A stretch of DNA of 64,000 nt. It comes from Ignavibacteriales bacterium (GTDB lineage: Bacteria > Bacteroidota > Ignavibacteria > Ignavibacteriales > Ignavibacteriaceae). Below are positions 1-28,580 of this stretch, piece after piece. Position numbers and translations under genes: made by a program. Numbering within the stretch: position 1 is the first letter of the stretch; every line of letters begins with the position of its first letter. The notes beneath the pieces are model-generated. The model searched no databases. It saw nothing but the letters and a program-made list of their open reading frames with translations, and was not told the origin of the DNA. The stretch covers positions 19,135 through 83,134 of the forward strand of contig JAGUYG010000022.1 in assembly GCA_020061465.1 (NCBI GenBank). The letters run 5' to 3'.

Positions 1-997
1 TTATAGAAAGAAAATGTTTTGCAAGTAATAAAATATCTTCTTGTCTATCGTGTAAAGGCGGAATAGTAAGCGTAATAACATTAAGTCTGAAGAGCAGGTC
101 TCTTCTAAAATTTTTATTATCGGCTTCTGTTAGGAGGTTTCTATTTGTTGCCCCAATTACCCGCACATTTGAAGTAAGGTTAGTAACGCCACCGATTCTT
201 CTGTACTCGCCGTTCTCAAGAAATCGTAGAAGTTTCGGCTGTAGTGCAAGACTTAGTTCACCAATTTCATCAAGAAATAGCGTTCCGCCATGAGCAATTT
301 CTACTAAACCCTGTTTAGCGGATTTAGCATCTGTAAATGCCCCTTTTTCATGCCCGAACAATTCGCTTTCAATTAGCTGGTCCGGTAACGAAGCGCAATT
401 AATAATAACAAATGGCTTGCTGCTTCTGGTTGAGTGTTTATGAATGTACTCTGCGAATAGTTCTTTTCCGGTTCCGGTTTCTCCTTCGATAAGAATATTG
501 GAATCGGACATAGCAGATTTGTTGGCAAGATTTATTGCACGCTGAAGTTCTGTGCTTATCCCTATAATTTTACCGGAAGATTTTTGACTTACCTGGTTGC
601 TTAATACGGTGGTTTTAACGAGAAGATCTTTACGCTCTAATGCACGGCTAAGTGTTACTAACAATTCATCAAAATTATAAGGCTTGTTGATAAAATCGTA
701 GGCACCAAGTTTAATGCAGTCAATTGCTTTACGAATTTCAGACTGTGCAGTTAAAATTATCACCTGAATTGAAGAATTATATTCCGAAACAAATTTTAAA
801 ACCTCTTCGCCGGAAACATCTTTCATGTTTAAATCTAACAACAGTGCATCGTAATTTTTGGATTTTACTGCGTCAATTGCGTATTTACCGTCATAAACAG
901 TATCGACCGAAAAACCCTCTTCTAAAAGCTGTTCCTTTAAGAGATAACATAGGGTTTCGTCATCGTCGCATACAAGTATTTTTGAATTTTTAGACAT
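1..997 (-). CDS. sigma-54-dependent response regulator (NtrC/AtoC-like: receiver + AAA+ sigma54-interaction domain), 3' end runs off the window
   Basis: Reverse-strand translation starts at the ATG at 995-997: MSKNSKILVCDDDETLCYLLKEQL (receiver). It continues with GETGTGKELFA (Walker A), HEKGAFTDA (GAFTGA-like loop), AHGGTLFLDEIGEL (Walker B) and RVIGATNRNL. The frame stays open to position 1. It is absent from the supplied ORF track because it is open at the window edge. Confidence 0.9.
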   Translation of the reverse strand, partial: MSKNSKILVCDDDETLCYLLKEQLLEEGFSVDTVYDGKYAIDAVKSKNYDALLLDLNMKDVSGEEVLKFVSEYNSSIQVIILTAQSEIRKAIDCIKLGAYDFINKPYNFDELLVTLSRALERKDLLVKTTVLSNQVSQKSSGKIIGISTELQRAINLANKSAMSDSNILIEGETGTGKELFAEYIHKHSTRSSKPFVIINCASLPDQLIESELFGHEKGAFTDAKSAKQGLVEIAHGGTLFLDEIGELSLALQPKLLRFLENGEYRRIGGVTNLTSNVRVIGATNRNLLTEADNKNFRRDLLFRLNVITLTIPPLHDRQEDILLLAKHFLSI

Positions 998-1074
998 AAG
1001 CTTGACTGAGTAACAATTTATTATGTTTGGATAAAAAAGAGCAAATTTCTATATTTGTTCCCTTAAAAAAGCAA

Positions 1075-1147
1075 GGGCGCGTAGCTCAGGGGTAGAGCAT
1101 CTGCCTTTTAAGCAGAGGGTCGGTGGTTCGAGCCCACCCGCGCTCAC
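1075..1147 (+). tRNA. tRNA-Lys (anticodon UUU)
   Basis: Cloverleaf read by eye: acceptor GGGCGCG/CGCGCTC, D arm GCTC-AGGGGTA-GAGC, anticodon arm TCTGC-CTTTTAA-GCAGA (anticodon TTT), T arm GGTGG-TTCGAGC-CCACC. Confidence 0.9.
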
Positions 1148-1152
1148 AAAAT

Positions 1153-1178
1153 GTGCGGAATTTTTTTTCGCACTTTTT
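1153..1178 (+). terminator. hairpin plus T-run after tRNA-Lys
   Basis: GTGCG-N11-CGCAC followed by TTTTTATTTT. Confidence 0.5.
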
Positions 1179-1424
1179 ATTTTAAACACTTCAAAAAACA
1201 TAAGTAAATTTTACTGAATTGTAAAATAAAGCATTATAAAAGCTATTGCAATGATTCTCTGTCAAATTATAGCTAATTAGGCAATTGTCTTTAAGCATTC
1301 TTTTCTTCCATTACCTTTGAATAATAATTGAAAACTTTTTATTAACAAAAGTCATTTAATTTCATATTTTAACATTGAAATATTTAAAATGTTTTTTTTA
1401 TTAAAGTGAAATAATTATCCCGGT

Positions 1425-1766
1425 GTGGGCGAAATCGTTTTTGGGACTATTATCAGAATTGCTCTGGTAATACCTATAATTTGGTTCTCAAAGGAATTTA
1501 TTGATTTTCAATTTTGGTGGATTGTTAGCATGATGATTATATACGGAGTTATTATTCATCCTGCTGTTATCCACTATAGATTATTTGAAGAAAAAAATAA
1601 AGATATTATAGAATCAACATTGTGTACAAGCTGCAAGCATTTTGATAAATCAGCAGTATTATGCATCAAATATGATAAACATCCAGCCCTTGATTACCTG
1701 TCCTGTGAAGGCAATGACTGGGAACCAAAGAATATGCAATTAAATACCCGGGATTTGAGCGATTAA
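1425..1766 (+). CDS. hypothetical small membrane protein with a Cys-containing C-terminal part
   Basis: 113-aa ORF with a GTG start. Two hydrophobic helices (IIRIALVIPIIWF, FWWIVSMMIIYGVIIHPAV) are followed by CTSCKH...C...C. No family recognised. Confidence 0.4.
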   Translation: MGEIVFGTIIRIALVIPIIWFSKEFIDFQFWWIVSMMIIYGVIIHPAVIHYRLFEEKNKDIIESTLCTSCKHFDKSAVLCIKYDKHPALDYLSCEGNDWEPKNMQLNTRDLSD

Positions 1767-1779
1767 ATTCAAATTAATT

Positions 1780-2722
1780 TTAGTAACCGTACTTCTTCAA
1801 AACTTTTTCAACTTCTTTTGCCCATATTGAATAGCCTTCTGCAGTAAGATGAACTCCGTCTGATGTTACAGCATCGTTTAACATATTATCAGTTGACATT
1901 CTTGAGTTTAAATCATATCTGTCCAAAATAAATTTAACTCACTCTAATCTCTCTCTTAAAAAGAGAGAGACTTATTGTCAATAAAACCTTATATGACTAT
2001 GTTCTGATCTACCTGGCAGTAGACAGGCAGAATATTTAACTCAAGTCATAAGTTTTAATAAGCCCTTCTCTTTTTAAGAGAAGGGTTGGGATGAGTTCCA
2101 TTGTAGTGTAAAAACAGTGTAATATTTTAATTATTCACAATAAATTTTCTTTAACAAAATTAATTTGGACAGTACTGGTTTAAATCGAGAAATGTAATTT
2201 TATTATTAATGCAATAATCGTACAATAATGAATTTAATATTTTGACTTCGAGATTTTTTTCTGCTGTATGATGCCATTTAGGCGACACATATAGAGTTGA
2301 TTGAACGATAGGTATAATTTTATATCTCTTAAATGTTTCAATTATTTTAATATAACTTTCAAAAATTGATTCAATCGTTAATCCAGCATAAATATCATTT
2401 ATTCTCCCCATTATAAAACAAATTTTTGATTTAAGATTTAAGACATAATCAAGCCTGTTAAAGAAGCCATCTACCAAATCGCTTGGGATACCTCTTTCCA
2501 CTAAATTTTTTCCCCAAGAAGTCCGTTCCAGTTTGTGCCGTGAGTAATTGAATTTCCAAGCATAACAATGTCTGCACGTTTTGTTTTGTACACCTTATAC
2601 ATTTCAATGTGTTGCCTATATAATGGATTGTATTCATATAACGCTGAATCCGCACTAGAGCTTTTAGGAAAGATGGTCTCGGAAAGCACGAAAAGTAATA
2701 TGACTAAAGATAAAAATTTCAT
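1780..2722 (-). pseudogene. SGNH/GDSL hydrolase, disrupted by a 263-bp insertion and by a frameshift in an A6 run
   Basis: The gene survives as three collinear pieces on the minus strand.
- N-terminal piece: signal peptide and block I, VMLGNSITHG (2722-2501).
- Middle piece: ERGIPSDLV...FIMGRINDIY...ITFLDLN (2501-2178).
- C-terminal piece: SRMSTDNMLNDAVTSDGVHLTAEGYSIWAKEV...* (1905-1780), which is block V DGxH.
Removing 1915-2186 rejoins the middle and C-terminal pieces in frame. Confidence 0.85.
1915..2177. mobile_element. MITE-like non-autonomous insertion with imperfect terminal inverted repeats and a 9-bp target-site duplication
   Basis: The direct repeat GTTTAAATC occurs at 1906-1914 and at 2178-2186. 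The element ends are ATATCTGTCCAAAAT... and ...ATTTGGACAGTACTG, which are imperfect inverted repeats. A second, nested inverted-repeat pair lies at 1936-1970 / 2063-2097; each arm contains a CTCTCTTAAAAAGAGAG-type palindrome. There is no ORF inside. Confidence 0.75.
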
Positions 2723-2854
2723 TTTTTAATGCTCACAAAATTGTGTACAATTTCTTTTATTTGCAGAAGTAAGTTAAAAATATGGAGTAATAAATAAAAT
2801 AATGGATAAAGCACTTAATCACTTAAATCATTAGATTTCTGTGTAAAAAATTAT

Positions 2855-2927
2855 GCCCCCGTAGCTCAGTGGATCAGAGCATTGGCCTCCGGAGCCATGT
2901 GCGCAGGTTCGAGTCCTGCCGGGGGTA
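2855..2927 (+). tRNA. tRNA-Arg (anticodon CCG)
   Basis: Acceptor GCCCCCG/CGGGGGT, D arm GCTC-AGTGGATCA-GAGC, anticodon loop CTCCGGA (anticodon CCG), T arm GCAGG-TTCGAGT-CCTGC. Confidence 0.85.
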
Positions 2928-3568
2928 CAAAGTGAAATTAGTACCAGCTTGACCACTTTCAAGTCCTTTATTTTCTAGGGTTTGGACAGGTTCGAACCTA
3001 TTCTTTTCAACTTTATCACCCTTTTTTCTTTTAGCAGATTCATAACAGAAAAAAAGGCTCTGAGAGCTTAATTTCAAGTTTTTTATCCTTTAATATGAGG
3101 TTCGAACTTATCAGGAACCATATCATATATCAATTCCAAATCTACTGAATGAATACAATCATAAAATTGTGATTTAACGGATTAGATTTAAAAAAACTTA
3201 CATAAAAAAGACAGGGGTGAGATAAAGGGACTCTTTTCACCTTTTCAAAAAGTTTTATTTTAAACGATAAGCGAAGCAGTTTTTAGTGATCTTACCAAAA
3301 GCTTACTAGAACCAATATACTTATAAAATTCCAACACGTCTCATAAAAGTTTTATTCATTTTTAAGTCGATGTCCTAAGGGTGTCCTACCGTCGATCGCT
3401 TGATAGTAGATGATTCGGAGTTGCAGTTAAGTTGTTTTCGACTCATAATTTAGATTACATAGTACTTTAAAAATTAGTTTGAATCATTTATTTTACAGAC
3501 TAAATTTTAGATTATGCGGTTAAGTGTTTTAACAGTTATCTATAATTCATTGGACTCAAATCAAAAAA

Positions 3569-4261
3569 ATGAAAAAAATATCGATACTACTTATTGAAGA
3601 TAATCGTCTTCTGCGTGAAGGCATTTCTACTTTGCTTAAAAAGCAGTCCGATATGAATGTTGTTTCTACGGTTGGCAATGGCGAAAATATTTTAGCGATG
3701 ATAGGTAAACTAAAGCCAAATATAGTGCTTCTTGATCTCGGGTTACGAAGCCGGAACAGCTTGGATATTGTAAAATTAGTTAGGACTAATTTTCAGGAAA
3801 CAAAAATAATTGTAATGGATCTTATTCCGCTCCAGGCAGATGTTTTTGAATTTGTTCAGGCAGGAGTATCAGGATTCATACTAAAAGATGCAAACATTGA
3901 CGAATTTCTTAAGACTATCCGATCGGTTTACCAGGGCGCTAAAGTTTTACCGCCTCATTTAACCGGTTCACTTTTTTCACAAATTGTTAAACATGCAATT
4001 AACGGATCAAAACCTTCCGTAATCGTTGAATCGGTTCGTATGACAAAACGTGAGCGACAAGTTATTGAATTAATTGCGGATGGTTCCACCAATAAAGAAA
4101 TTGCACAAAAACTTCATCTCTCGCCCTACACGGTAAAAAGTCACGTCCATAACATACTTGAAAAATTAGCGCTTAATACACGTGTTCAGATTGCAAAACA
4201 TGCTCACCTATCTGAATCATACAAAACTGCAATCGATACGACTTCATTGATTAGCGAATAA
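3569..4261 (+). CDS. LuxR/NarL-family response regulator, paralogue 1 (receiver + LuxR HTH)
   Basis: LLIEDN...IVLLDLGL...GFILKD receiver pattern. The C-terminal MTKRERQVIELIADGSTNKEIAQKLHLSPYTVKSHVHNILEKL is a classic LuxR-type HTH. Confidence 0.9.
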   Translation: MKKISILLIEDNRLLREGISTLLKKQSDMNVVSTVGNGENILAMIGKLKPNIVLLDLGLRSRNSLDIVKLVRTNFQETKIIVMDLIPLQADVFEFVQAGVSGFILKDANIDEFLKTIRSVYQGAKVLPPHLTGSLFSQIVKHAINGSKPSVIVESVRMTKRERQVIELIADGSTNKEIAQKLHLSPYTVKSHVHNILEKLALNTRVQIAKHAHLSESYKTAIDTTSLISE

Positions 4262-4277
4262 TTTCCCTTCAGTAATT

Positions 4278-4326
4278 AACTCACCCCAAAGATGTAGTTC
4301 ATTTATCATCCTTTTGACCGATTGAT
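4278..4326 (+). promoter_or_regulatory. regulon box copy A (GATGTAG subtype), ~110 nt upstream of response regulator 2
   Basis: AACTCACCCCAAAGATGTAGTTCATTTATCATCCTTTTGACCGATTGA. One of eight same-orientation copies of a ~46-bp box (see findings). Confidence 0.6.
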
Positions 4327-4435
4327 TATACATCCCAAATAGTTGCATTTTGATTTTAGCAACTTGCGAATAGCTCAATTATTCTCTAAAGAAAGAGCAT
4401 CATCATTAAATTTAATAATTCAGTAAGATCATTTT

Positions 4436-5125
4436 ATGAAAAAAATCAGATTATTACTCATCGAAGATAACCGTCTTCTTCGGGATGGAATCTTTTCAAT
4501 TCTTAAACCTCATAAGGATATCCTCATAATTTCCGCATCCGGTGACGGTAAGAACACGCTTGTAAAGATCAAACAGTTAAAACCAAATGTGGTTCTTTTG
4601 GATTTGGGATTACGAAGTCAAAACAGTTTACATATTGCAGAAATAGTGAAGAAAGATTTTCCCGACGCTAAAATTATTGTTATGGATCTTGCGCCGGTAC
4701 AGGCAGATGTTTTACAGTATGTAAAAGCAGGTGCAAATGGATTCATACTCAAAGATGCCTCGCTTAATGATTTTTTAATCACGATAAGAATGGTAAATGA
4801 AGGAGCAACTGTTCTTCCGCCTCTATTAGTTGATTCGCTTTTTTCCCAGATTGTTGATCACGCTGTTAGAGAAGGTAAATCCGAACTGAAAAAAGCGGTA
4901 CAGATGACAAAGAGGGAAAGAGAGGTTATCAGACTACTGAGCGATGGTATGAGTAACAAAGAGATCGGTCAGAAAATTCGCATATCAACCTACACTGTTA
5001 AGAGTCATATTCATAATATTATGGAGAAACTCGCACTACACACACGCCTGGAAATTGCTAACTATTCTTACACTGCTGAAACTCTCAATACAATTTCCAA
5101 GAGTATTTCGATGATTAATAATTGA
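4436..5125 (+). CDS. LuxR/NarL-family response regulator, paralogue 2
   Basis: Same architecture as 3569-4261. About 26 differences over 229 aligned residues versus the copy at 24817-25506, counted by eye. Confidence 0.9.
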   Translation: MKKIRLLLIEDNRLLRDGIFSILKPHKDILIISASGDGKNTLVKIKQLKPNVVLLDLGLRSQNSLHIAEIVKKDFPDAKIIVMDLAPVQADVLQYVKAGANGFILKDASLNDFLITIRMVNEGATVLPPLLVDSLFSQIVDHAVREGKSELKKAVQMTKREREVIRLLSDGMSNKEIGQKIRISTYTVKSHIHNIMEKLALHTRLEIANYSYTAETLNTISKSISMINN

Positions 5126-5160
5126 ACTATCAACTAAATACAATCTGAACCTGATTATTT

Positions 5161-5206
5161 ACTCTCACACTAGATGTAGTCCCTTTTTCATCCCTTTGGA
5201 CTATAT
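5161..5206 (+). promoter_or_regulatory. regulon box copy B (GATGTAG subtype), ~190 nt upstream of the KaiC homologue
   Basis: ACTCTCACACTAGATGTAGTCCCTTTTTCATCCCTTTGGACTATAT. Confidence 0.6.
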
Positions 5207-5393
5207 ATTTTTTTCGCAGTTTTTTTTATAATTCATTGAAATAAAGAGACAAACACAAAAATCTTTTCTGCGAGGTTTTACTACATTGTTACGGATAGAT
5301 ATTTGTGGTAAACGAAATTAGTTGCGATAGATTTTAATAATCGTAGAAAAATTATTTAAAAGAATAGTAATAACATTTCTGGAGATAAATCTT

Positions 5394-7133
5394 ATGAAAA
5401 AAAATATATTAAAATTTCAGCGAAAGACCCTTCCAAAAGCTCCCACAAGTATTCAAGGGTTGGACGAAATAACAGGAGGTGGTTTACCGAAAGGGAGACC
5501 AACGCTTATATGCGGAGGTGCGGGTTGTGGAAAGACCCTATTTGCGATGGAGTTTCTCGTTCGCGGTGCAACGCTTTACAATGAACCTGGCGTATTTATT
5601 TCGTTCGAGGAAACCGAAAAAGAACTCACAGCAAACGTTGCTTCATTGGGATTCGATTTGAACCATCTTGTAGAGCGCAAAAAGATTTGGCTTGAGCACA
5701 TTTACGTTGAACGGGGAGAAATTGAACAGAGTGGTGAATATGATTTGAAGGGTTTGTTTGTTCGTATCCATCGTGCAATTGAAAGTATCGGCGCTAAGCG
5801 TGTTGTACTGGATACTATTGAATCTCTCTTCTCAGCGCTGCCCAATTCTACTGTTGTGCGTACAGAACTGCGAAGGTTATTCGGCTGGCTGAAAAAGAAA
5901 GGTGTGACTACAATAATCACCGGAGAAAAAGGCAATGGTACTTTAACACGCCAGGGCTTGGAAGAGTACGTTTCTGATTGTGTTATTCTGCTGGATCATC
6001 GTGTTACCGATCAATCATCCATACGACGATTACGAATTGTTAAATATCGTGGTTCAACACATGGTACAAACGAATATCCTTTCTTAATTGACGAAGATGG
6101 TTTTTCTGTTCTACCAGTCACTTCACTGGGATTAAATCACATTTCATCCAAAGAAAGAATTTCCACAGGTATTCCGCGTCTTGATACAATGCTTTCCGGT
6201 AAAGGTTACTTTCGCGGAAGTACTATACTTGTTTCAGGTACTGCTGGTACAGGCAAAACAAGTCTTGCAGCGCAATTTGTTGAAGCCGCGTGCAAGCGTG
6301 GTGAGCGAGTGCTTTATTTTGCTTTCGAAGAATCACCAAGTCAGTTTATGCGTAACATGGCTTCTATTGGAATACACTTAGAGCCGTGGGTTAAAAAAGG
6401 ATTACTCCACTTTCACGCAACCCGTCCAACGCTTCATGGGTTGGAACATCACCTTACAACTTCTATCAAATTAATTATTAAAGTTGAACCGCAAATTGTA
6501 GTTCTTGATCCTATTGATGCATTTGTTATTGGAGGAAATCAAACTGAAGTTAAAATAATGCTGCTTCGTCTTGTGGATTTTTTAAAGATGAGGAATATCA
6601 CCGCAATGTTCGCAAGTCTCACTAAAGGAGGGGAGAACCAGGAACTTACAGATATGGCTATATCATCGCTGATAGACACATGGCTTTTATTACGTGATAT
6701 TGAAATTGGCGGTGAGCGCAACAGAGGTCTGTATATTCTTAAATCACGCGGAATGAATCATTCCAATCAAATTCGTGAGTTCATACTAACCGATAACGGA
6801 ATTGAATTACTTGATGTATATGTTGGTCCGGAAGGTGTGTTAACCGGTTCTGCCCGATTGTCACAAGAAGCGAAAAATGATGCAGAACAATTATCTCGGC
6901 AACAAGAAATTGAACACAAAAAATTTGGAATAGAACTTAAACGTGCTGCCATGGAAGCTCAAATAGTTGTTTTAAAATCGGAATTTAAGGCAGAAGAATC
7001 AGAAACACTTAAGCTTATCGAAATGGAAATAGCAAACACTAAAAGGTTCGCAGAAGATAAAACAAAAATGGCAAAGAGCAGGAAGGCAGATAAATTTATA
7101 AAAAAAACAGTACAGTCAGCAACAAAAATTTAA
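5394..7133 (+). CDS. kaiC: KaiC-family double-RecA-domain ATPase with a ~90-aa C-terminal coiled-coil extension
   Basis: N-terminal IQGLDEITGGGLPKGRPTLICGGAGCGKT (Walker A1) with FISFEETEKEL. The second domain has GIPRLDTMLSGKGYFRGSTILVSGTAGTGKT (Walker A2) with YFAFEESPSQ. ...AISSLIDTWLLLRDIEIGGERNRGLYILKSRGMNHSNQIREF resembles the KaiC CII phosphosite/arginine-finger region. The last ~90 aa are heptad-like and K/E-rich. Confidence 0.88.
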   Translation: MKKNILKFQRKTLPKAPTSIQGLDEITGGGLPKGRPTLICGGAGCGKTLFAMEFLVRGATLYNEPGVFISFEETEKELTANVASLGFDLNHLVERKKIWLEHIYVERGEIEQSGEYDLKGLFVRIHRAIESIGAKRVVLDTIESLFSALPNSTVVRTELRRLFGWLKKKGVTTIITGEKGNGTLTRQGLEEYVSDCVILLDHRVTDQSSIRRLRIVKYRGSTHGTNEYPFLIDEDGFSVLPVTSLGLNHISSKERISTGIPRLDTMLSGKGYFRGSTILVSGTAGTGKTSLAAQFVEAACKRGERVLYFAFEESPSQFMRNMASIGIHLEPWVKKGLLHFHATRPTLHGLEHHLTTSIKLIIKVEPQIVVLDPIDAFVIGGNQTEVKIMLLRLVDFLKMRNITAMFASLTKGGENQELTDMAISSLIDTWLLLRDIEIGGERNRGLYILKSRGMNHSNQIREFILTDNGIELLDVYVGPEGVLTGSARLSQEAKNDAEQLSRQQEIEHKKFGIELKRAAMEAQIVVLKSEFKAEESETLKLIEMEIANTKRFAEDKTKMAKSRKADKFIKKTVQSATKI

Positions 7134-7200
7134 TGTATTTTTCGAAAGCAATAACAGAGTAGAATCATAGTTTATAAGAAAACAACAAAAGGAAAAAATC

Positions 7201-7335
7201 ATGAGCAAAGGTCAGAACAGCAAGAAAAATTCTAAAAAAGAACCTGCTAAAACAATGAAGGAAAAGAAGGCTGCTAAGCGAGAAAAGAAAAATGAAAAAA
7301 ATAAACCGGGAATCCTCATTCAACAATTCACCTAA
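7201..7335 (+). CDS. possible 44-aa lysine-rich small protein
   Basis: ATG preceded by AAAGGAAAAAATC. Translation: MSKGQNSKKNSKKEPAKTMKEKKAAKREKKNEKNKPGILIQQFT*. It is below the size cutoff of the ORF track. Coding status is uncertain because the composition is low-complexity. Confidence 0.3.
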   Translation: MSKGQNSKKNSKKEPAKTMKEKKAAKREKKNEKNKPGILIQQFT

Positions 7336-7407
7336 TCGTGAAGTCTGAAATTTTATTGAATATCTAATAGTCTTAAACTTTTCCCTTTAGTAGTCAGTAA
7401 AGCATTA

Positions 7408-7453
7408 TCCTAACACAAGGATTAATTCCTATTTCATCCCTTTGCTCTATTGA
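7408..7453 (+). promoter_or_regulatory. regulon box copy C (GGATTAAT subtype) upstream of the DUF3494 gene
   Basis: TCCTAACACAAGGATTAATTCCTATTTCATCCCTTTGCTCTATTGA. Confidence 0.55.
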
Positions 7454-7616
7454 ACAATCTAACGATTCTAACTATTGTAGTAGTAAGCAAAAGACTAATA
7501 CAGGTCATATTAATTTTCATTAACAATAGGTGAAGCTTATGAAAACCAAAACTACAAATCAAAGTGTGGTTTCTGAACGATGTGAGAACTTGCCTCGCAA
7601 TGAAGCCGCAGCCCTA

Positions 7617-8708
7617 ATGACTAAAAAGTTTTTCGTCATTCGACTTTTAACAGTGCTGATGATTGCTCTGGTTATATCAGTCAGTACTTTTTCACAATCG
7701 CAAGCACCGGTAAACCTTGGAACGGCTGGTAATTTTGTGATTCTGGCAAAATCTGGAATCTCAACTGTTCCTTCTTCCGCAATTACCGGTGATATTGGAG
7801 TTAGTCCAATTGATCAAACTGCCATAACCGGGTTCTCTTTAATACTTGATCCTTCGGGTGTTTTTGCGACATCAACCCAAGTAACCGGAAAGATATTCGC
7901 CGCCGATTTTGCAGACCCAACTCCGTCTAATCTAACCACAGCAATTGGCGATATGGAGACTGCATATACCGATGCAGCCGGACGAACAAATCCCAATTTC
8001 ACTGAACTGGGTGCCGGAGAAATCGGTGGTTTGACTCTTGTACCCGGACTCTACAAGTGGGGTACCGATGTTTTGATATCAACGGATGTCACTCTCGATG
8101 GTGGTCCAAATGATGTCTGGATATTCCAAATTGCGGGTGGTATTACTCTGGCTAATGGTAAGAGCGTTATCCTAACCGGTGGTGCATTACCTAAGAACAT
8201 CTTTTGGCAGTGCTTCGGTATTGCATCTATTGGAACAACTGCGCACTTTGAGGGAATCATATTGTCTCAAACATCAATCACCCTTGGGACAAGCGCATCT
8301 GTGAACGGCATACTATTGGCACAGACTGCAGTTTCGTTAAATGCCAATGCCGTCACCAAGCCCACAGGAGTTACCGGAGTCGAAACAGGATTCGTACCTG
8401 AAGAGTTCGCTCTCTTGCAGAACTATCCCAATCCGTTCAATCCATCCACTAAAATTAAATACAGTCTTGGAAACGCAGGTATGGTTTCACTCAAGTTGTA
8501 TAATGTGCTTGGACGTGAAGTTGTTTTACTCGTGAACGGCTACCATGAAGCTGGAAGCTACACCGCTGAGTTCAATACCAACAAGGGAAGACTCAAACTT
8601 GTGAGCGGTGTGTACTTTTACCGCTTTGAAGTCACACCAAAGAGTGAAGGCGCTTCTGTGCCCAACAGAGCCTTTGTTTCAGTTAAGAAGCTGCTTCTTT
8701 TGAAGTAA
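7617..8708 (+). CDS. DUF3494 (ice-binding-like) beta-solenoid protein with a T9SS type-A C-terminal sorting domain
   Basis: LGTAGNFVILAKSGISTVPSSAITGDIGVSPIDQTAITGF is the DUF3494 N-terminal signature. The C-terminus, FALLQNYPNPFNPSTKIKYSL...VSLKLYNVLGREVV...SGVYFYRF, is the Por/T9SS sorting tail. The ORF is open from 7530. I prefer the ATG at 7617 (MTKKFFVIRLLTVLMIALVISVSTFSQ) because it gives a normal signal peptide. Confidence 0.85.
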   Translation: MTKKFFVIRLLTVLMIALVISVSTFSQSQAPVNLGTAGNFVILAKSGISTVPSSAITGDIGVSPIDQTAITGFSLILDPSGVFATSTQVTGKIFAADFADPTPSNLTTAIGDMETAYTDAAGRTNPNFTELGAGEIGGLTLVPGLYKWGTDVLISTDVTLDGGPNDVWIFQIAGGITLANGKSVILTGGALPKNIFWQCFGIASIGTTAHFEGIILSQTSITLGTSASVNGILLAQTAVSLNANAVTKPTGVTGVETGFVPEEFALLQNYPNPFNPSTKIKYSLGNAGMVSLKLYNVLGREVVLLVNGYHEAGSYTAEFNTNKGRLKLVSGVYFYRFEVTPKSEGASVPNRAFVSVKKLLLLK

Positions 8709-8740: not shown

Positions 8741-8807
8741 ATTGGGGCTGTATAAAAAGTTGGTAATACTTTTATTTGCAACCAAATAAAACTGAGCGAA
8801 ACTATTT

Positions 8808-8853
8808 ACTCACCTAGCGATGTAGTTCCTTTTTCATCGCTTTGGACTATTGA
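8808..8853 (+). promoter_or_regulatory. regulon box copy D (GATGTAG subtype) upstream of the five-gene giant-protein operon
   Basis: TACTCACCTAGCGATGTAGTTCCTTTTTCATCGCTTTGGACTATTGA. Here the inverted half-sites extend to AGCGATG...CATCGCT. Confidence 0.6.
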
Positions 8854-9028
8854 ATACTATCCAATAACTACCTATATTAAATAGGATTATAACCCAACGA
8901 TTACTTGATTTTGAAAAACGACACTTGTTTTTTTTGAATTAAAAAATAACAGGCATTATACCTTAGTTATTCTGCAAGGCTATTACCATTAAAAATATAA
9001 CGATCTACCAACCAAAATATGGTGTATC

Positions 9029-12000
9029 ATGCGAAAAATTTTTCTGCTTATAATATTATTTTTCTTTACCGGGTTTTGCTTTGCTCAGGTATTAGTAATA
9101 CTTCAGCAGCCTCCTCCAAACCAGCTTCGTGCTACTGATATTTGGAATCTTACACTTACAAACACAACCCGCAATAATATTGTGGTAACAATATCCGGAA
9201 CTCTCGAAGAAGCGGGTGCTGGAATAATAGTAGATGGAACTTCAAAACCTATAAGCTTACAGCCCGGGACAAAGAGAATTACTTATGACGATGTTAAAAG
9301 CGGAAATGTAAATTTTAAATCCGGTAAGTGGAGAGAAGCATTTACACGTACCGGTAATACCCCATCAGGAGATTATACAATTTGTATTCAGGTAAAAAAT
9401 GAATCCGGCGAAGAAATTGGAAGCGACTGCATAGAACAAAGAGTTGAAATAATTTCTTCGCTTATACTAATTTCACCTACTGATGAAGAAACTATTCCAG
9501 CAGAGCAGCAGCCATCATTTACCTGGTTGACACCAATGCCGGTTCCTTCAGGACAAATAACCTACAAATTAAAAATAGTTGAGATACTTGGAAATCAATC
9601 TCCTGAAGAAGCTATGCTAAGAAACCGGGCATGGTTTGAGAAGCCGGATATCAGATCAACAATGTTTCAGTATCCTATATCGGCAAGAAAAATTGAAGCA
9701 GGAAAAAAATATGCATGGCAGATTTTTGCTATGCAGAATAATTCATCTCTGTCTTCCAGTGAAATTTGGAAATATAATACTGATACAAGCAGTAATACGT
9801 TAAAGAGTCTTACCACAACCAGTGATGATAGCAGCAGTAGTGGTAATGATAGTAGTAGCAATAGTAATCCACAACTTCCGGTATCAAGCTGCCAATCAAT
9901 AGCGCAAGCTGCAATTATTACAAACCAAATAGCTTCATCAAAATCTGCAAATGATTTTGTTCAACAATTTATCAAAGTCGGTCATTTTAATATGAAAGTG
10001 CTCACTGCATCAGGAAGCAGTTCGGCGTTAACCGGAACAGGTTCAATAGTTGTTTCCTGGCTTAAAACACCAATAGCCGTTGAATTTAAAAATATAAAAG
10101 TAAATACGGTAGATGAACTATATAACGGCGAGGTTATAACACAATTTGATCAAACACCAAGTACTTGGCCTCAACAATGGTTAATAAATGGAACCGGTAC
10201 TTTCAATTGGACAACCACAAAAGTAAAACAATTAAATAATTGGCTTCACAATACTATAAGTAATTATCCCGTTGCAAATAAACTTGTAAAAGATTTTGAC
10301 TTAAACCAGATGGTTCAGGATTATACTAATACACCCTTAAAACTCCCTTTAGGTGTTAATAATGCAGACGGCTACACAATTGCTATTTCAGAAATGAAGT
10401 TTGAGCCGACAAGTGCAAAATTAAATTGTCTCGCAATTTTTCCGGTTAATGAATATAATGACAGTGTTGGTTTTAAAGGTTCAAATATAGTTTTCTCAAC
10501 AGGAGGACCCTCATTACAATCCGCAAAACTTGGTTTAATTGACGATGTAACTTTTATTGGAAATGTACCCAATGGAGATTCCTATCATTTAGTATTTAAA
10601 AAAGAACAAGGGGCATCGGACGGTACATTTATAGAATGGGACTGTGAAGGCTTTCGTGAATTAAATATTGATCTGGATGTATTATTTCCAAGAAGCTGGT
10701 TAAAACCTGTACCCGACAATGGTACGGATAAGGTTATATGTAATATCAAAACAAATATTGTTAAGTGGGATGACTGGATGATTGAGGCGAACCTGCCCAA
10801 TAGCACAATTTCCGGTACGCAGGGAATGGAGCTCGAGGTTACCTCGTTTTATTATGACCATTCTTCGGTCAGAAATCCTGATTCACTATCATTCCCGGCA
10901 AATTATCCTGTGGGCGCTACTACCGGTTTAGATTTCACCGGTTTCTTCATTAAGAATGCTAAAATAAAATTCCCGGATAATTTCAAAACTTCTAACCAAA
11001 ATGTTACCATTAATATTGAAAAAATGATTATCAATAAACAAGGGTTAACAGGAAAAGTTACGGCAAAAGATATTATAACATTTCCAAATGGAAATGTATC
11101 CGATCTTGGTGCAAGCTTAGACACGTTAAAGCTTGAAATCATTTGCAGCTCATTGACAAATGCTTATCTGCGCGGAAAGATTGTCCTGCCGGTATCGGAA
11201 GTAAACGCAGCTAATGCACTTTTATTTAAAGCAACATTTGCTTCAAATAATGGATTTCAATTTACCATTCAACCGCAGGGACCTATAACCGCAAAATTTT
11301 TCTCTGATGCAAAGCTTGTATTAGCAAATACTTCAACTCTTAGTCTTTCAATTAATAACAGTACAAATTTTGATATTAAGCTGAACGGCGATTTTGAATG
11401 GGCTAATATAAATATCGGACCTGTTAAAAATGTAAAAATGAAAATGGGCTTTCAGAATGTGGGAATGAGCTATGACAACATCGCTAACAGTAATAATTTT
11501 ACTTTTAACAAAGGTACATGGAGTTTTGCAAGCCCGCCAAAATTCTTGGCAAATTTTCCGGTTAGTATCAAATACGTTAATTTCAATATGAAGCCGAAGC
11601 AAGGAAGTGAAGTTCTCCGAGGCGCATTATCATTTTCAGTTGTGGTTAATCTTGATGAGAAAATCGGCGGAACATCTGCTCTATCAGTAATTGGCGCTAT
11701 AGAAAAAAATCCTTCAACCGGAAAATTCACACCAACATTCGTGGGAGTTAATTTAGATACCATTAAAGTATTTGCAAACTTATCTGCAGTTAAGCTTGAT
11801 GGCAGTATTGCATTCTTTAATGGCAGCCCGGTAGAAGGGAACGGATTTAAGGGAACGATAAAGGCTACCGTGAATTCCATAAAAACAGAGATTAGTTCTA
11901 TGTTAATAATGGGGTCAACTAATTACAATAACGGAAATAATTTTTTTAGATACTGGTATGTTGATGCTAAAGTGATACTTCCAAAAACTTCCGGAATTCC

Positions 12001-13885
12001 GTTCCTTTCCGGTTTAGCTTTTTATGGTTTTGGAGTGGGAGTGTGGAAAAGAATGGATGTTGGGAACATTCCGGCGCTTAACTTATCCAGCATTGAAAAT
12101 GCAGCCCAAACTAATAACACAACATCATCCGGTACAAGTTTTACTCCTAATAAAAATATAGGACTTGGCTTAAAAGTTCTCGCAGTAATAGGCACTTACC
12201 CTGAGCCTAATGCCTTTAACAGCGATGCTACTTTAAGCGGACAGTTTACAACAACAGGCGGTCTAAATAAAATAGAATTTAATTTTGACTTCTGGTGTAT
12301 GACCGATTTAACTAAGAGAAGTGATGCCACTATTTTGGGTAATGCAAATGTACAGTATGTACCGCCGACAAAAGTATTTTCTTTAACAGCATCTGCATTA
12401 ATTGATAAAGCGCCGGTTACAACAAAAGGAATTGGAAATCCTAACGATAGAGTAAATCTTGCTTTATACATAAATGGAAAAACAAGCAAATGGTATTTTA
12501 TATGCGGCACTCCAAATCAAACTAACAAAATTAAAGTTTTAGGAATAACCGCATGGGAATATTTTTTATTAGGAAATGACATTGGTCAGTTTGTTAGAAC
12601 CGGTTTTCAGCAAACAACTATTTCAGGATTAAATAGTGTTGGAATGTCATATTCTAATAATGTTCCAACAACAGTACCTTCACAATCATCAACCGGAAAA
12701 GGTTTTGCTTTTGGAGTTGGGGTAAGTTTTAGTAATGATAAATCCAAGCATATATTATCATTGCCGCGAGGTAATGTTTATCTTAACTATGGTGCAGGCG
12801 GAGGTTTTGAAGTTAATTTATCTTTACTTCAATATCCTAATGCTACTGTATGTGGAAGCACTTCTCCTATTGGTTTTAGAAACTGGTATGCTCAGGGTGG
12901 GGTAGCTGCCTGGTTTTATGGATATGTTAAAGTAACAGTTCCTAAAAAAAGCGGGATTTGTATTATATGCTGCGGATCTTCAGGAACTTGTGATTATAAT
13001 TTTGCTTCAATCAAAACAGGTTTGTGGGTGCAAGCCGGTTTTCCGAATCCTGTATGGGTAACCGGAGAGGCGCTTGTTTCAGTTAATGTACTTGATCTTT
13101 TTGATTGGTCAGCAACAGTAGACCTTAATTACGGAACACCTTGTACGCCAACTCCTTTGCCTGATAATCAAACTTACACACAGGAAGATGCAACCCAGCA
13201 AATTGGGGATATGATAATTAGCATTGATACTCCTCCTTCAACTGAAAGATTTGATCCGGCTAAGAAAATAGGTGTTGTGTTTGGGTTTACTCCTAATGAA
13301 GTCTTTGATGTTCAAGAAGGACAGTCTGATGGTTCTATACTTAACAGAACATTTCAGGTAAAATATTTTGGAACATTAACTTCGTTAGGTCCGGCGCCAT
13401 TAAATTTACAGCCATCATCTGTAACGCAAAGTACACCACTAACCAGTCAGACATTATCAGCAAATCAAATTGCAGTTTCACATCAAAACTTTCAAACATT
13501 AACACTCTATAATCAACCTTCAAGTTCAATACATCTAAATTCCAATACAAGTAATTTGATTAATCTTGTAAGAAGCGCCGGAACAAACTCAATCGGTCAA
13601 TATGAATATTATATACAGCGAACTTTTTTATTGAACTATAGAAATCTTGAAGATACTACTCGTTATAAATTTACAGTCCGTGCAGAACTATGGGGAATAA
13701 AACCAGGCACTGCAAATGTCTGGGAAAAAGCAAAATCAAACAGCGGTAATTTTATAACTGAAACAAGAACTGCTATTTTCAGTTCAGGAATTTTGCAGCC
13801 GGTAACCATTCAACCCGCATCTTCGAACAATTACCAAAATAGATTAAGCAGTCAAAATCAACCAAGTAATAGCCAGAGAAGATAA
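9029..13885 (+). CDS. 1618-aa exported protein: signal peptide, shared N-terminal two-domain module, Ser-rich linker, ~1300 aa of uncharacterised beta-rich sequence
   Basis: Signal peptide MRKIFLLIILFFFTGFCFAQ. Module A is LQQPPPNQL...PSGDYTICIQV. Module B is FTWLTPMP...YKLKIVEILGNQSPEEAM...FQYP...GKKYAWQI. The linker is TTTSDDSSSSGNDSSSNSN. There is no T9SS tail and no recognisable catalytic motif. Confidence 0.85.
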   Translation: MRKIFLLIILFFFTGFCFAQVLVILQQPPPNQLRATDIWNLTLTNTTRNNIVVTISGTLEEAGAGIIVDGTSKPISLQPGTKRITYDDVKSGNVNFKSGKWREAFTRTGNTPSGDYTICIQVKNESGEEIGSDCIEQRVEIISSLILISPTDEETIPAEQQPSFTWLTPMPVPSGQITYKLKIVEILGNQSPEEAMLRNRAWFEKPDIRSTMFQYPISARKIEAGKKYAWQIFAMQNNSSLSSSEIWKYNTDTSSNTLKSLTTTSDDSSSSGNDSSSNSNPQLPVSSCQSIAQAAIITNQIASSKSANDFVQQFIKVGHFNMKVLTASGSSSALTGTGSIVVSWLKTPIAVEFKNIKVNTVDELYNGEVITQFDQTPSTWPQQWLINGTGTFNWTTTKVKQLNNWLHNTISNYPVANKLVKDFDLNQMVQDYTNTPLKLPLGVNNADGYTIAISEMKFEPTSAKLNCLAIFPVNEYNDSVGFKGSNIVFSTGGPSLQSAKLGLIDDVTFIGNVPNGDSYHLVFKKEQGASDGTFIEWDCEGFRELNIDLDVLFPRSWLKPVPDNGTDKVICNIKTNIVKWDDWMIEANLPNSTISGTQGMELEVTSFYYDHSSVRNPDSLSFPANYPVGATTGLDFTGFFIKNAKIKFPDNFKTSNQNVTINIEKMIINKQGLTGKVTAKDIITFPNGNVSDLGASLDTLKLEIICSSLTNAYLRGKIVLPVSEVNAANALLFKATFASNNGFQFTIQPQGPITAKFFSDAKLVLANTSTLSLSINNSTNFDIKLNGDFEWANINIGPVKNVKMKMGFQNVGMSYDNIANSNNFTFNKGTWSFASPPKFLANFPVSIKYVNFNMKPKQGSEVLRGALSFSVVVNLDEKIGGTSALSVIGAIEKNPSTGKFTPTFVGVNLDTIKVFANLSAVKLDGSIAFFNGSPVEGNGFKGTIKATVNSIKTEISSMLIMGSTNYNNGNNFFRYWYVDAKVILPKTSGIPFLSGLAFYGFGVGVWKRMDVGNIPALNLSSIENAAQTNNTTSSGTSFTPNKNIGLGLKVLAVIGTYPEPNAFNSDATLSGQFTTTGGLNKIEFNFDFWCMTDLTKRSDATILGNANVQYVPPTKVFSLTASALIDKAPVTTKGIGNPNDRVNLALYINGKTSKWYFICGTPNQTNKIKVLGITAWEYFLLGNDIGQFVRTGFQQTTISGLNSVGMSYSNNVPTTVPSQSSTGKGFAFGVGVSFSNDKSKHILSLPRGNVYLNYGAGGGFEVNLSLLQYPNATVCGSTSPIGFRNWYAQGGVAAWFYGYVKVTVPKKSGICIICCGSSGTCDYNFASIKTGLWVQAGFPNPVWVTGEALVSVNVLDLFDWSATVDLNYGTPCTPTPLPDNQTYTQEDATQQIGDMIISIDTPPSTERFDPAKKIGVVFGFTPNEVFDVQEGQSDGSILNRTFQVKYFGTLTSLGPAPLNLQPSSVTQSTPLTSQTLSANQIAVSHQNFQTLTLYNQPSSSIHLNSNTSNLINLVRSAGTNSIGQYEYYIQRTFLLNYRNLEDTTRYKFTVRAELWGIKPGTANVWEKAKSNSGNFITETRTAIFSSGILQPVTIQPASSNNYQNRLSSQNQPSNSQRR

Positions 13886-13887
13886 TT

Positions 13888-18916: not shown

Positions 18917-18948
18917 AATTTTAATTTAATATAAAAATAGGAAAAGCT

Positions 18949-20586: not shown

Positions 20587-20602
20587 CCCAAACAGGTGAT
20601 GT

Positions 20603-24395: not shown

Positions 24396-24671
24396 AATAC
24401 TATCTATCTAAAATAAAACTCACTACTAAGATGAATACCTTTTAAAAGTTTAGGATGTGAATTAATAAGCTTCATTCATAACTTCACAAACACAGGCAAG
24501 AACGTTTTTCTCTTCACGCATAAAATTTCCTGCCAAATAATTTTGTACACAATTCCCAAAATGTTATTTACAATTTTCAAACATTACTACGTCGAAAGAA
24601 GCATTTAAAACTTGCAGCAATTAGAAAAATTTTGCGTGCGAATAATTATCAGCCAGAATAAGTGTCAAGTT

Positions 24672-24719
24672 TACTCAACCCAAAGATGTAGTTCCTTTTT
24701 CATCCTTTTGTACGATTGA
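24672..24719 (+). promoter_or_regulatory. regulon box copy E (GATGTAG subtype) upstream of response regulator 3 / PP2C phosphatase
   Basis: TACTCAACCCAAAGATGTAGTTCCTTTTTCATCCTTTTGTACGATTGA. Nearly identical to copy A. Confidence 0.6.
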
Positions 24720-24795
24720 TTTTAAAGTTCCATTAGCTGCATTTTTCCATTGGTAATAAAGCATACTTTGCTCGATCCATATAATTGTATTTGAT

Positions 24796-26847: not shown

Positions 26848-26893
26848 TCTCACTCTTAAGGATTAATCCATTTTCCATCCATTGGATTCATTT
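26848..26893 (+). promoter_or_regulatory. regulon box copy F (GGATTAAT subtype, most divergent) upstream of the radical SAM pair
   Basis: TCTCACTCTTAAGGATTAATCCATTTTCCATCCATTGGATTCATT. Confidence 0.5.
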
Positions 26894-28547: not shown

Positions 28548-28580
28548 CAAAATAATATATATAACCTTAGGAGAGAGAAA

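Follow-up and report, generated by a model that had tools for sequence, protein, structure and literature searches.

A KaiC2-type kaiC gene without an adjacent kaiB, behind a lineage-specific sequence box, in a bacterium of the Ignavibacteriota

The kaiC locus and its product

The DNA analysed here (the window) is a 64-kb stretch of the genome of an Ignavibacteriota bacterium. It carries a kaiC gene that is preceded by two response-regulator genes, RR1 and RR2, and followed by a small gene, s44. These and other features of the window are listed in Table 1.

Table 1. Features of the kaiC locus and of related sites in the window.
Feature	Position (nt)	Strand	Evidence or remark
RR1, NarL-type response regulator (REC + GerE HTH)	3569..4261	+	Pfam/NCBIfam domains
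Box upstream of RR2	4271..4330	+	nhmmer E 3.9e-14
RR2, NarL-type response regulator, directly upstream of kaiC	4436..5125	+	Pfam/NCBIfam domains
Box upstream of kaiC; core AGATGTAGTCCCTTTTTCATCCCTTTGGACTAT	5156..5208	+	nhmmer E 2.8e-11
TATAAT, -10-like hexamer downstream of box	5227..5232	+	read from sequence
kaiC CDS	5394..7133	+	ATG start, 579 aa, KaiC2 subgroup
CI domain, aa 17-241	5442..6116	+	best PF06745 stretch 17-241; Walker A Lys47, Glu72/Glu73
Lys119 codon, motif YDL-K-GLF, C-terminal edge of KaiB-docking B-loop	5748..5750	+	alignment
CII domain, about aa 252-487	6147..6854	+	Walker A Lys288, Glu312/Glu313
Codons of Ser424 and Ser425, predicted autophosphorylation sites	6663..6668	+	alignment
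C-terminal extension, aa 488-579, predicted helical coiled-coil tail	6855..7130	+	alignment, composition, AlphaFold
s44, conserved 44-aa Lys-rich small protein gene	7201..7335	+	68 nt past kaiC
Box upstream of ice-binding-like T9SS protein gene (7530-8708)	7396..7458	+	nhmmer E 6.5e-12
Box ahead of RR3 and SpoIIE/PP2C pair	24661-24723	+	nhmmer
RR3, NarL-type response regulator	24796-25506	+	Pfam
SpoIIE-family PP2C phosphatase	25616-26815	+	Pfam

The kaiC product contains two KaiC domains (Pfam PF06745, 361 bits in 2 stretches) and scores 736 bits against the NCBIfam model NF006799, "circadian clock protein KaiC", for which the cut-off is 408. A first-pass annotation of this DNA, made from its letters, had described both KaiC halves as intact, and the motifs that it quoted are all present: one Walker A motif per half (GGAGCGKT and GTAGTGKT) and the two catalytic glutamate pairs (SFEETE and AFEESP). 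The Ser-Ser pair that it placed at the phosphosite also holds. The segment reads AISSLIDTWLLLRDIEIGGERNRG, and its serines, numbered 424 and 425, align both to S431/T432 of Synechococcus elongatus KaiC and to the two serines changed to Glu in the Rhodobacter sphaeroides S413E/S414E structure, 8FWI.

The closest solved relative is the R. sphaeroides KaiC (8DBA; E 1.5e-204, residues 13-569, 56% identity). Because the alignment to this protein runs on through the tail, we place the window KaiC in the published KaiC2 subgroup, for which a Ser-Ser site and a C-terminal extension exceeding that of other KaiCs by some 50 aa or more are the criteria (PMC10076222, PMC5520375). Neither feature is peculiar to the window gene; together they define the subgroup, and the protein is not a new kind of KaiC, nor does it reveal a new family or mechanism. 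No paper that mentions both KaiC and Ignavibacteri* came up in a full-text literature search. Relative to the other members of its clade the gene has a dN/dS of 0.065-0.10 (about 0.07) at a dS of about 0.65-1.7, a pattern of strong purifying selection at the codon level, and proteins 88-97% identical to it occur in more than 100 clusters. Judged by its sequence, the gene probably codes for a functional member of the KaiC2 subgroup.

The C-terminal extension begins at about residue 488, is about 95 aa long, lacks proline and consists to 44% of K, E and A. It reaches 77 residues beyond the last position alignable to S. elongatus KaiC (residue 502, against 510 of 519 in the S. elongatus sequence), and the coiled-coil tail of 8DBA aligns with it up to residue 569, at 31% identity. 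Close to its end lies a conserved M-x-x-SRKAD motif; most of the 83 relatives, which range from 534 to 601 aa, have a C-terminal motif of this kind. A low-confidence AlphaFold model (mean pLDDT 54 overall, 40-66 in the tail) places tail helices at 485-521 and 528-577; its input was a shallow alignment with rows 88-97% identical, and nothing but the tail's secondary structure was taken from it. The K/E-rich, R. sphaeroides-like extension of the first-pass annotation is thus borne out by composition and by the 8DBA alignment, while its heptad pattern is ambiguous, a simple count of a and d positions, which is a crude score, giving two competing registers.

The regulon box and the neighbouring genes

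The box upstream of kaiC, already noticed in the first-pass annotation, is one of 8 copies in the window detected with an nhmmer profile built from 7 of the window copies. All lie on the same strand, each upstream of a plus-strand ORF, and one is weak. Related genomes keep the element: in 17 distinct Ignavibacteriota loci it stands ahead of kaiC at a distance of 52-188 nt, and among the loci fetched it is confined to that phylum. It precedes kaiC in relatives that retain kaiB as well (loci L018 and L023), so the box is not linked to the KaiB-less state. The genes that it heads in the window encode NarL-type response regulators, ice-binding-like T9SS proteins (the ORF at 7530-8708 matches Pfam Ice_binding and Por_Secre_tail), OmpA-like proteins and KaiC; in related loci YtxH and a CsbD-like protein, the latter assigned by eye, are added to this set. 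The box does not seem to be a known RNA element: an Rfam search at gathering thresholds returned three tRNAs only, none of them at a box.

Downstream of the kaiC box lies a -10-like hexamer, and the corresponding -35 position (5204-5209, TATATT) is a poor match. Across 63 aligned boxes a weakly conserved TAnnnT follows 16-17 nt past a TTGAAT-like hexamer. The promoter linked to the box appears to resemble the sigma70 type, and its presence upstream of kaiC suggests that kaiC is a target, and hence a member, of a stress/envelope regulon. The stress character of this regulon is suggested by the family names of its members.

The first-pass annotation listed three LuxR-type regulators as neighbours. 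All three are present, and their type can be refined: RR1, RR2 and RR3 are full two-domain response regulators of the NarL type, each with its acceptor Asp intact. An intact acceptor calls for a kinase, so that a histidine kinase must exist elsewhere. In keeping with the earlier note, none was found in the window: a Pfam scan of 44 of the 51 window ORFs of at least 100 aa, the other 7 being nested in longer ORFs, gave no match to histidine-kinase families. In two related loci, L010 and L014, a module of a CheB/CheR fusion, a histidine kinase and RR1 is found about 1.5 kb or less from kaiC; tblastn with these kinases and the fusion protein gave no match in the window and no remnant upstream of RR1. 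With phosphorylatable regulators adjoining kaiC, and a kinase module close to it in two relatives, the earlier description of a "stand-alone" KaiC was overstated.

The small ORF behind kaiC, put forward earlier as a possible gene, is a real and conserved one, with homologues in 14 Ignavibacteriota loci and an AGGAG-like Shine-Dalgarno sequence in nearly all of them. It stands directly behind kaiC, or behind kaiC-kaiB in the KaiB-containing loci L023 and L024. A scan for terminators gave no candidate in the kaiC-s44 gap, nor any behind s44, and the two genes are probably co-transcribed.

This arrangement invites a reading in which KaiC, as master timer or switch, governs the box regulon and its surface proteins, acts through the neighbouring regulators and feeds back on its own promoter. 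The gene does have a box and adjoins two response-regulator genes, one of which is boxed too, and RR1-like genes flank kaiC, with or without kaiB, in 25 of the 30 loci from Ignavibacteriota, compared with 10 of the 53 loci from elsewhere. Being a target of the box, however, does not imply a controlling role, and the box stands before kaiC in relatives with kaiB too. The regulators, moreover, need a histidine kinase, and a cognate-looking one lies beside RR1 in L010 and L014. The tie between KaiC itself and the response regulators is one of gene order. We regard a controlling KaiC as rather unlikely.

Loss of kaiB

No KaiB was detected in the 64-kb window by tblastn (E<=10) or by a KaiB profile run over all six frames, which scored positive controls at 1e-40 to 1e-48, and no KaiA-family or KaiB-family Pfam match was found among the 44 ORFs scanned. 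Together with the kinase queries above, these searches agree with the first-pass annotation that kaiC has no kaiB, kaiA or sasA-like kinase beside it. In relatives that possess kaiB its position is highly regular: it lies directly 3' of kaiC in 63/63 genome loci, kaiC is directly upstream in 65 of the 67 metagenome kaiB loci that could be decided, and, outside the KaiB-less lineages, every one of the 62 decidable loci has a spacing of 24-213 nt between the two. By comparison, 20 Ignavibacteriota loci showed no kaiB near kaiC when flanks of up to 10 kb were searched, 4 of these contigs stopping 0.6-4.2 kb past kaiC.

The KaiC phylogeny for which the first-pass annotation had called places the window protein in a main KaiB-less clade of 15 Ignavibacteriota members with 95.5% bootstrap support. 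Monophyly of all KaiB-less lineages together was recovered in 0% of the replicates, and on this tree at least two more lineages dropped kaiB independently of the main clade. Sister loci from Ignavibacteriota and Bacteroidales have the order kaiC-kaiB, and s44 follows kaiB where kaiB is present and kaiC where it is not. Comparative gene order shows in this way that in the clade of the window an ancestral kaiC-kaiB-s44 order was reduced to kaiC-s44 by excision of kaiB; the 68-nt gap between the two remaining genes fits a clean deletion. We infer that kaiB is absent genome-wide from this lineage, from the 64 kb available here and from up to 10 kb on each side of kaiC in its relatives. An Ignavibacteriota KaiB profile, run against a large protein collection, returned 8,000 near-equal matches, almost without lineage labels.

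The loss of kaiB is accompanied by a change at the edge of the B-loop, the segment of KaiC that docks KaiB. The position that reads YDL-E-GLF in KaiB-linked proteins is E or D in 99/99 cases (63/63 genome and 36/36 metagenome kaiB loci), versus K, N, A or V in 19 of the 20 KaiB-less loci; the sole exception, lineage L016, keeps Glu. By alignment and phylogeny, the acidic residue has been replaced in at least two independent KaiB-less lineages, and in the window it is Lys119. Two residues ahead of this position lie F122/D123 of the cyanobacterial protein, which are required for binding of KaiB and SasA (bioRxiv 10.1101/2020.06.17.158394), and alignment and secondary sources suggest that the Glu contacts KaiB. 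In the KaiB-less clade the loop is unchanged in length and still conserved, so that binding of KaiB, or of a KaiB-like domain, may persist.

These data bear on the view that the system is an ordinary KaiBC hourglass, such as that of R. sphaeroides or Rhodopseudomonas, whose kaiB has moved elsewhere in the genome. The conserved loop, of the same length as in KaiB-binding proteins, the Glu retained in L016 and the fact that 64 kb of the genome is visible would all accommodate it. Against it stand the fixed place of kaiB directly downstream of kaiC wherever it exists, a kaiC-s44 gap that suits clean deletion, and the replacement of an otherwise invariably acidic residue in more than one KaiB-less lineage. 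A relocated kaiB is in our judgement unlikely.

Possible function of KaiC without KaiB

The PP2C phosphatase reported by the first-pass annotation is a SpoIIE-family protein, and it might be supposed that this box-controlled enzyme substitutes for KaiB by dephosphorylating pSer424/pSer425, since PP2C enzymes act on phosphoserine and RR3 and the phosphatase gene are paired like an operon downstream of a box. Yet it lies 18 kb from kaiC, of the 19 other KaiB-less loci only 1 has a homologue no more than 10 kb from kaiC, and KaiC dephosphorylates itself, all of which makes such a substitution very improbable. That kaiC is a decaying, non-functional remnant, for which loss of the partner alone would speak, is contradicted by an intact reading frame with all catalytic motifs, a dN/dS of about 0.07 at a dS of about 1 and the wealth of near-identical proteins, and can hardly be entertained.

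The reading that we favour, with a probability of roughly 0.7, is that of a KaiB-less KaiC2 with Lys119 at its docking loop, which is a target of the box promoter and probably sends its output through two-component proteins. By homology to R. sphaeroides KaiC, the protein would form two hexamers joined by a bundle of C-terminal helices and would autophosphorylate Ser424 and Ser425 without KaiA; a falling ATP:ADP ratio would lead to dephosphorylation through ATP-synthase/ATPase chemistry. Because KaiB speeds both ATP hydrolysis and dephosphorylation in R. sphaeroides, a KaiC without KaiB is expected to stay phosphorylated while ATP is plentiful and to dephosphorylate only slowly. It would then act as a slow reporter of the energy or stress state of the cell rather than as an hourglass reset by KaiB. 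By analogy with Pseudomonas (see below), its output would most likely run through two-component proteins, namely the response regulators on its flank and a kinase whose gene lies elsewhere.

A bolder version supposes that the KaiC2 dodecamer has been rewired in this clade, its remodelled B-loop surface around Lys119 docking a different partner, for instance a receiver domain of the flanking NarL-type regulators or their kinase, so that the phosphorylation state, set by the ATP:ADP ratio or the duration of stress, directly tunes the box regulon of stress and cell-surface genes, kaiC included. We consider this unlikely; if true, timers of the Kai family would have an output architecture not described before, and this in a non-phototroph.

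For the favoured KaiB-less KaiC2 the novelty lies in the system and not in the protein: kaiB has been lost, the docking residue has changed, and kaiC stands behind a lineage-specific box. KaiC2 with a coiled-coil tail was characterised as one of the two components of an hourglass that depends on KaiB. Several lineages of the phylum studied here have given up KaiB and yet keep KaiC under strong constraint. They form a natural experiment on the role of KaiC on its own and on the residues that matter for KaiB binding, in which the change at residue 119 is pinpointed as a specific mutation (K119E, or the reverse in KaiB-binding proteins). The locus also links a Kai protein to a promoter element and a set of genes that can both be defined, in a non-phototrophic phylum that has been little studied.

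Comparison with known Kai systems

The window KaiC shares fold and chemistry with S. elongatus KaiC (37% identity, with Walker A motifs, glutamate pairs and phosphosite aligned), but has Ser-Ser in place of Ser-Thr and about 75 more residues at the C-terminus. Unlike the cyanobacterial KaiABC system, it has no KaiA, KaiB, SasA or CikA encoded near it, and its score against the cyanobacterial KaiC model TIGR02655 (361.7 bits) is below the cut-off of 546.25.

Pairs of KaiB2 and KaiC2, which co-occur significantly in the survey of Schmelling et al. (2017, PMC5520375), are found in Bacteroidetes, Legionella pneumophila and Rhodopseudomonas palustris, with reported stress-related or hourglass roles. 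The window KaiC belongs to the same subgroup but lacks kaiB beside it.

A KaiB-less precedent is offered by environmental Pseudomonas, whose KaiC homologues, according to a preprint (bioRxiv 10.1101/2022.01.26.477890), act with two-component proteins in stress resistance. [quoted passage not shown] The window resembles this module in having response regulators next to kaiC (RR2, then RR1 further upstream). It differs in that no histidine kinase was detected in the 64 kb, nor within two genes of kaiC, and its regulators are DNA-binding NarL-type proteins, not single-domain ones.

The nearest characterized system is that of R. sphaeroides (8DBA, 8FWI, 8FWJ), a KaiBC hourglass timer whose KaiC belongs to the KaiC2 subgroup, forms a dodecamer held by a coiled coil and is phosphorylated independently of KaiA (Pitsawong et al. 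2023, PMC10076222). On its own that KaiC stays phosphorylated; its ATPase activity is about 208 ATP per day, which KaiB raises to about 1,557 (PMC10076222). The window protein resembles it in its double domain, overall identity, Ser-Ser site, long C-terminal extension and lack of KaiA. It departs from the KaiBC hourglass in its partner, as kaiB is missing from the 64 kb and from the loci of its clade, and in the docking residue, where Lys takes the place of the acidic residue. Its tail shows no more than 31% identity, its host is a non-phototrophic member of the Ignavibacteriota, and its gene, with NarL-type regulators on its flank, belongs to what appears to be a stress/envelope regulon defined by the box.

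The KaiC protein

The 579-aa protein carries a pair of KaiC domains, matched by Pfam PF06745 in two stretches (361 bits), and scores 736 bits against the NCBIfam model NF006799, "circadian clock protein KaiC" (cut-off 408), and the intact two-half KaiC of the first-pass annotation thus stands. Its score against the cyanobacterial model TIGR02655 is 362 bits, below the cut-off of 546. All of the motifs quoted previously were found: Walker A lysines Lys47 and Lys288, glutamate pairs Glu72/73 and Glu312/313, and the phosphosite segment AISSLID, with Ser424 and Ser425 as its serine pair. In pairwise alignment these serines match S431/T432 of Synechococcus KaiC, in a reference sequence that shows the known positions K52, E77/78 and S431/T432. 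A second alignment pairs them with the serines changed to Glu in the Rhodobacter sphaeroides S413E/S414E structure 8FWI. The closest solved structure is R. sphaeroides KaiC 8DBA (E 1.5e-204; window residues 13-569, tail included), with 56% identity overall and 31% in the tail. The best 120 protein matches listed are 87-97% identical, the named ones among them being Ignavibacteria, Ignavibacteriaceae or Melioribacteraceae, and the nearest genome loci are Ignavibacteriota metagenome-assembled genomes. The window protein is a further member of the known KaiC2 subgroup of coiled-coil-tailed KaiCs.

The C-terminal tail is Pro-free and 44% K+E+A. The K/E-rich extension described as a coiled coil is present and aligns with the R. 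sphaeroides tail, but a crude heptad count was ambiguous. A poor AlphaFold model (pLDDT 54) places helices at 485-521 and 528-577. The 83 relatives collected are 534-601 aa long, the majority with an M-x-x-SRKAD-like motif near the C-terminus. KaiC2 proteins have Ser-Ser phosphosites and an extension of ~50 aa, whose 12-helix coiled-coil bundle joins two hexamers (Pitsawong et al., PMC10076222). The tail and Ser-Ser site are therefore family traits rather than oddities of the window gene.

Loss of kaiB from the kaiC locus

We fetched 80 genome loci (L-numbers) encoding KaiC relatives at 62-89% identity and mapped kaiB, the gene for the usual partner of KaiC, onto the KaiC tree. All decidable loci outside the KaiB-less Ignavibacteriota lineages carry kaiB, in one or two copies, 24-213 nt after kaiC. 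The window and 14 fetched loci form a main clade of 15 (95.5% bootstrap), in none of which was kaiB found (the flanks searched reach 10 kb at most; in four cases the contig stops 0.6-4.2 kb past kaiC). Nor was it found in the available flanks of five other Ignavibacteriota loci, L014, L016, L026, L027 and L028, all of which except L014 fall in a 96%-supported sister clade. The tree supports at least three independent losses, since the KaiB-less sequences were never monophyletic (0/200 replicates), L016 never grouped with L026/L027/L028, and the sister clade also includes KaiB+ members. The lack of KaiB previously noted for the window was borne out by tblastn at E<=10 and by a six-frame KaiB profile search, both negative (positive controls 1e-40 to 1e-48). 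Scanning metagenomes with a profile of Ignavibacteriota KaiB gave 80 kaiB loci. Of these, 67 extend far enough upstream to be judged, and 65 of the 67 have kaiC directly upstream; orphan kaiB genes are therefore rare.

The small gene s44 comes after kaiB in KaiB+ loci L023 and L024, and 68-162 nt after kaiC in the window, L033, L004, L011 and L015, an arrangement that fits clean excision of kaiB from kaiC-kaiB-s44.

Two tandem kaiB genes follow kaiC in many Bacteroidales loci and in some from Proteobacteria, Verrucomicrobia and archaea (L030-L032, L039, L040, L042, L043, L046, L050, L054, L059-L061 and others). Only one kaiB is present in KaiB+ loci of Ignavibacteriota and, L055 excepted, in all those of Acidobacteriota.

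Substitution at the KaiB-docking loop

When columns conserved among KaiB-linked KaiCs were compared with the KaiB-less clade, only eight positions differed consistently. Window residue 119, in the motif YDL-x-GLF, shows the clearest difference: among KaiB-linked KaiCs it is acidic (E or D) in 63/63 genome sequences (that of R. sphaeroides included) and in 36/36 metagenome sequences. Of the 20 KaiB-less KaiCs, 19 have K (15), N, A, A or V here and L016 alone retains E; the replacements fall in at least two well-separated lineages, the main clade having Lys and L026-L028 having Ala/Val. By alignment, residues 116-117 match the Phe-Asp pair of the cyanobacterial B-loop, a KaiB-binding element in which mutation of the pair lowers affinity for KaiB and SasA (bioRxiv 10.1101/2020.06.17.158394). 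The alpha6 Gln-Tyr of KaiC also contacts KaiB, and ~5 residues past it the clade has another change of its own, Leu to Val at residue 155. From these alignments we infer KaiB contacts at residue 119 and near residue 155.

The KaiB-less KaiC is under purifying selection and shows no decay, since dN/dS is 0.065-0.10 at dS ~0.65-1.7. Its B-loop region is as conserved as in KaiB+ relatives, and may therefore leave space for a different partner.

In the tail, residues 515 and 518 (nt 6936-6947) are Leu and Ala (LELKRAA) in the KaiB-less main clade and Arg and Glu (LERKREA) in KaiB+ Ignavibacteriota KaiCs. The R. sphaeroides coiled coil changes register between an Ala/Arg-packed and a Leu/Ile-packed state; by analogy, the Leu515/Ala518 changes might bias such a switch.

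Neighboring genes

Features of the window and of related loci
Feature	Location	Strand	Description
tRNA-Lys	1075-1147
GDSL-lipase fragment	2160-2501	-	113 aa
tRNA-Arg	2855-2928
RR1	3569-4261	+	two-domain NarL-type response regulator, acceptor Asp and Lys intact
RR2	4436-5125	+	as RR1
kaiC	5394-7133	+	ORF, 579 aa
s44	7201-7335	+	small Lys-rich protein
Large-protein block	9029-23548	+	five consecutive ORFs: 1618, 726, 952, 545, 981 aa
RR3	24796-25506	+	as RR1
Radical SAM genes	27003-30059	+	514 aa (B12-binding), then 198 aa (B12-binding) and 263 aa (radical SAM + DUF4070)
TetR-HemD ORF	43265-44671	+	468 aa; TetR-family N-terminal DNA-binding domain (residues 21-65), HemD (230-458)
Box copies	4271-4330, 5156-5208, 7396-7458, 8803-8858, 24661-24723, 26848-26885 (weak), 30308-30369, 32090-32154	+	motif of ~55 nt
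CheB/CheR-like fusion (~990 aa) and histidine kinase (~428 aa)	L010 3080-7353; L014 12126-16381		directly upstream of RR1-type regulator
s44 homologues	L002 12681-12815; L004 11831-11965; L023 7424-7558; L024 12170-12304

The three regulators called LuxR-type in the first-pass annotation exist, but are full two-domain NarL-type response regulators. The PP2C phosphatase listed with them matches the SpoIIE family, and the gene downstream of the kaiC region encodes an ice-binding-like protein that carries a T9SS sorting domain. As had been stated for histidine kinase and KaiA, no match to these families or to KaiB occurs in the 44 scanned ORFs of at least 100 aa (51 were listed; the seven unscanned lie within longer ORFs). 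The flanking NarL-type regulators require a kinase, and none was found in the window. The Ignavibacteriota loci L010 and L014 have a cluster of CheB/CheR fusion, histidine kinase and RR1 within ~1.5 kb of kaiC; L046, L042 and L060 have partial copies of this module, and a CheB/CheR-like fusion protein is also encoded 8-10 kb from kaiBC in Bacteroidales loci. No trace of the L010/L014 fusion and kinase was found in the 64-kb window.

The possible 44-aa ORF after kaiC proved to be conserved in 14 Ignavibacteriota loci, always immediately after kaiC or kaiC-kaiB. It encodes a Lys-rich protein 41-45 aa long (MSKGQxSKKxSKKEPAKTMKEKKAAKRxKKNEK...), and in nearly every case an AGGAG-like Shine-Dalgarno sequence precedes it. 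The family has no Pfam or NCBIfam match.

Upstream of RR1, window 1-3568 is gene-poor, with otherwise short ORFs only, and looks like decayed or rearranged DNA. The TetR-HemD ORF, in which HemD is a uroporphyrinogen-III synthase domain, lies inside a heme biosynthesis cluster (hemA, hemC, hemE, hemN-like).

The regulon box

The box is a motif of ~55 nt with eight same-strand copies in the window, upstream of plus-strand genes: RR2, kaiC, the ice-binding-like gene, the large-protein block, RR3-PP2C, the 514-aa radical SAM gene (weak copy), a DUF4382 gene and an OmpA-like gene. A box profile gave 99 matches at E<=1, of which ~78 reach E<1e-3. Every match falls in an Ignavibacteriota-type locus, and the 53 loci from other phyla have none; the box is always in sense orientation upstream of genes. 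The box previously assigned to kaiC is shared by 17 distinct related loci, KaiB+ L018 and L023 among them, at 52-188 nt upstream of the gene. These data make kaiC a target of the box regulon, but not by themselves a controller of it. Other recurrent targets are ice-binding-like (T9SS) proteins, YtxH, OmpA-like proteins, RR2/RR3-like (NarL-type) regulators and an 83-aa protein, CsbD-like by eye. After a very conserved 29-nt core, AAAGATGTAGTTCCTTTTTCATCCCTTTG, the 63 aligned copies show a TTGAAT-like hexamer and then, at a spacing of 16-17 nt, a weak TAnnnT; for kaiC this last element is TATAAT at 5227-5232. We read the box as a putative activator site or operator adjoining a putative sigma70-type promoter; a comparison with Rfam gave no match at this position.

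The five large ORFs, presumably the "surface proteins" of the first-pass annotation, are nearly without Pfam matches, the only ones being a weak fn3 and a DUF11 repeat. The 198- and 263-aa ORFs look like a second radical SAM copy, split in two.

Proposed function and comparison with known systems

KaiC2 autophosphorylation is KaiA-independent, and the KaiC2 hourglass is driven by ATP:ADP, with KaiB binding CI and raising ATPase ~7-fold (PMC10076222). By homology, the window KaiC would be a dodecamer, autophosphorylated at Ser424/425 without KaiA and dephosphorylated in dependence on ATP:ADP. R. sphaeroides KaiC alone remains phosphorylated while ATP is high and loses its phosphate slowly (PMC10076222); from this behavior, the KaiB-less protein would act as a slow energy or stress reporter and not as a KaiB-reset hourglass. 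Output might pass through two-component proteins, by analogy with Pseudomonas KaiC (bioRxiv 10.1101/2022.01.26.477890).

A literature search found no paper on KaiC together with Ignavibacteria. The analysis gives a specific residue to test and a natural series of KaiB losses, and no new principle. The system is a variant: a KaiC2 without KaiB, with repeated loss, an altered putative docking residue and a phylum-specific regulon. It shares with R. sphaeroides KaiC the Ser-Ser site, the tail and 56% identity, and differs in lacking kaiB and in residue 119. The Pseudomonas neighborhoods, in the part of that source available, hold a kinase and response regulator, with kaiB not among the genes listed, whereas the window has flanking regulators and no kinase was found. 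Finally, KaiB2 and KaiC2 usually co-occur (PMC5520375), whereas the window and its clade have KaiC2 without an adjacent kaiB.
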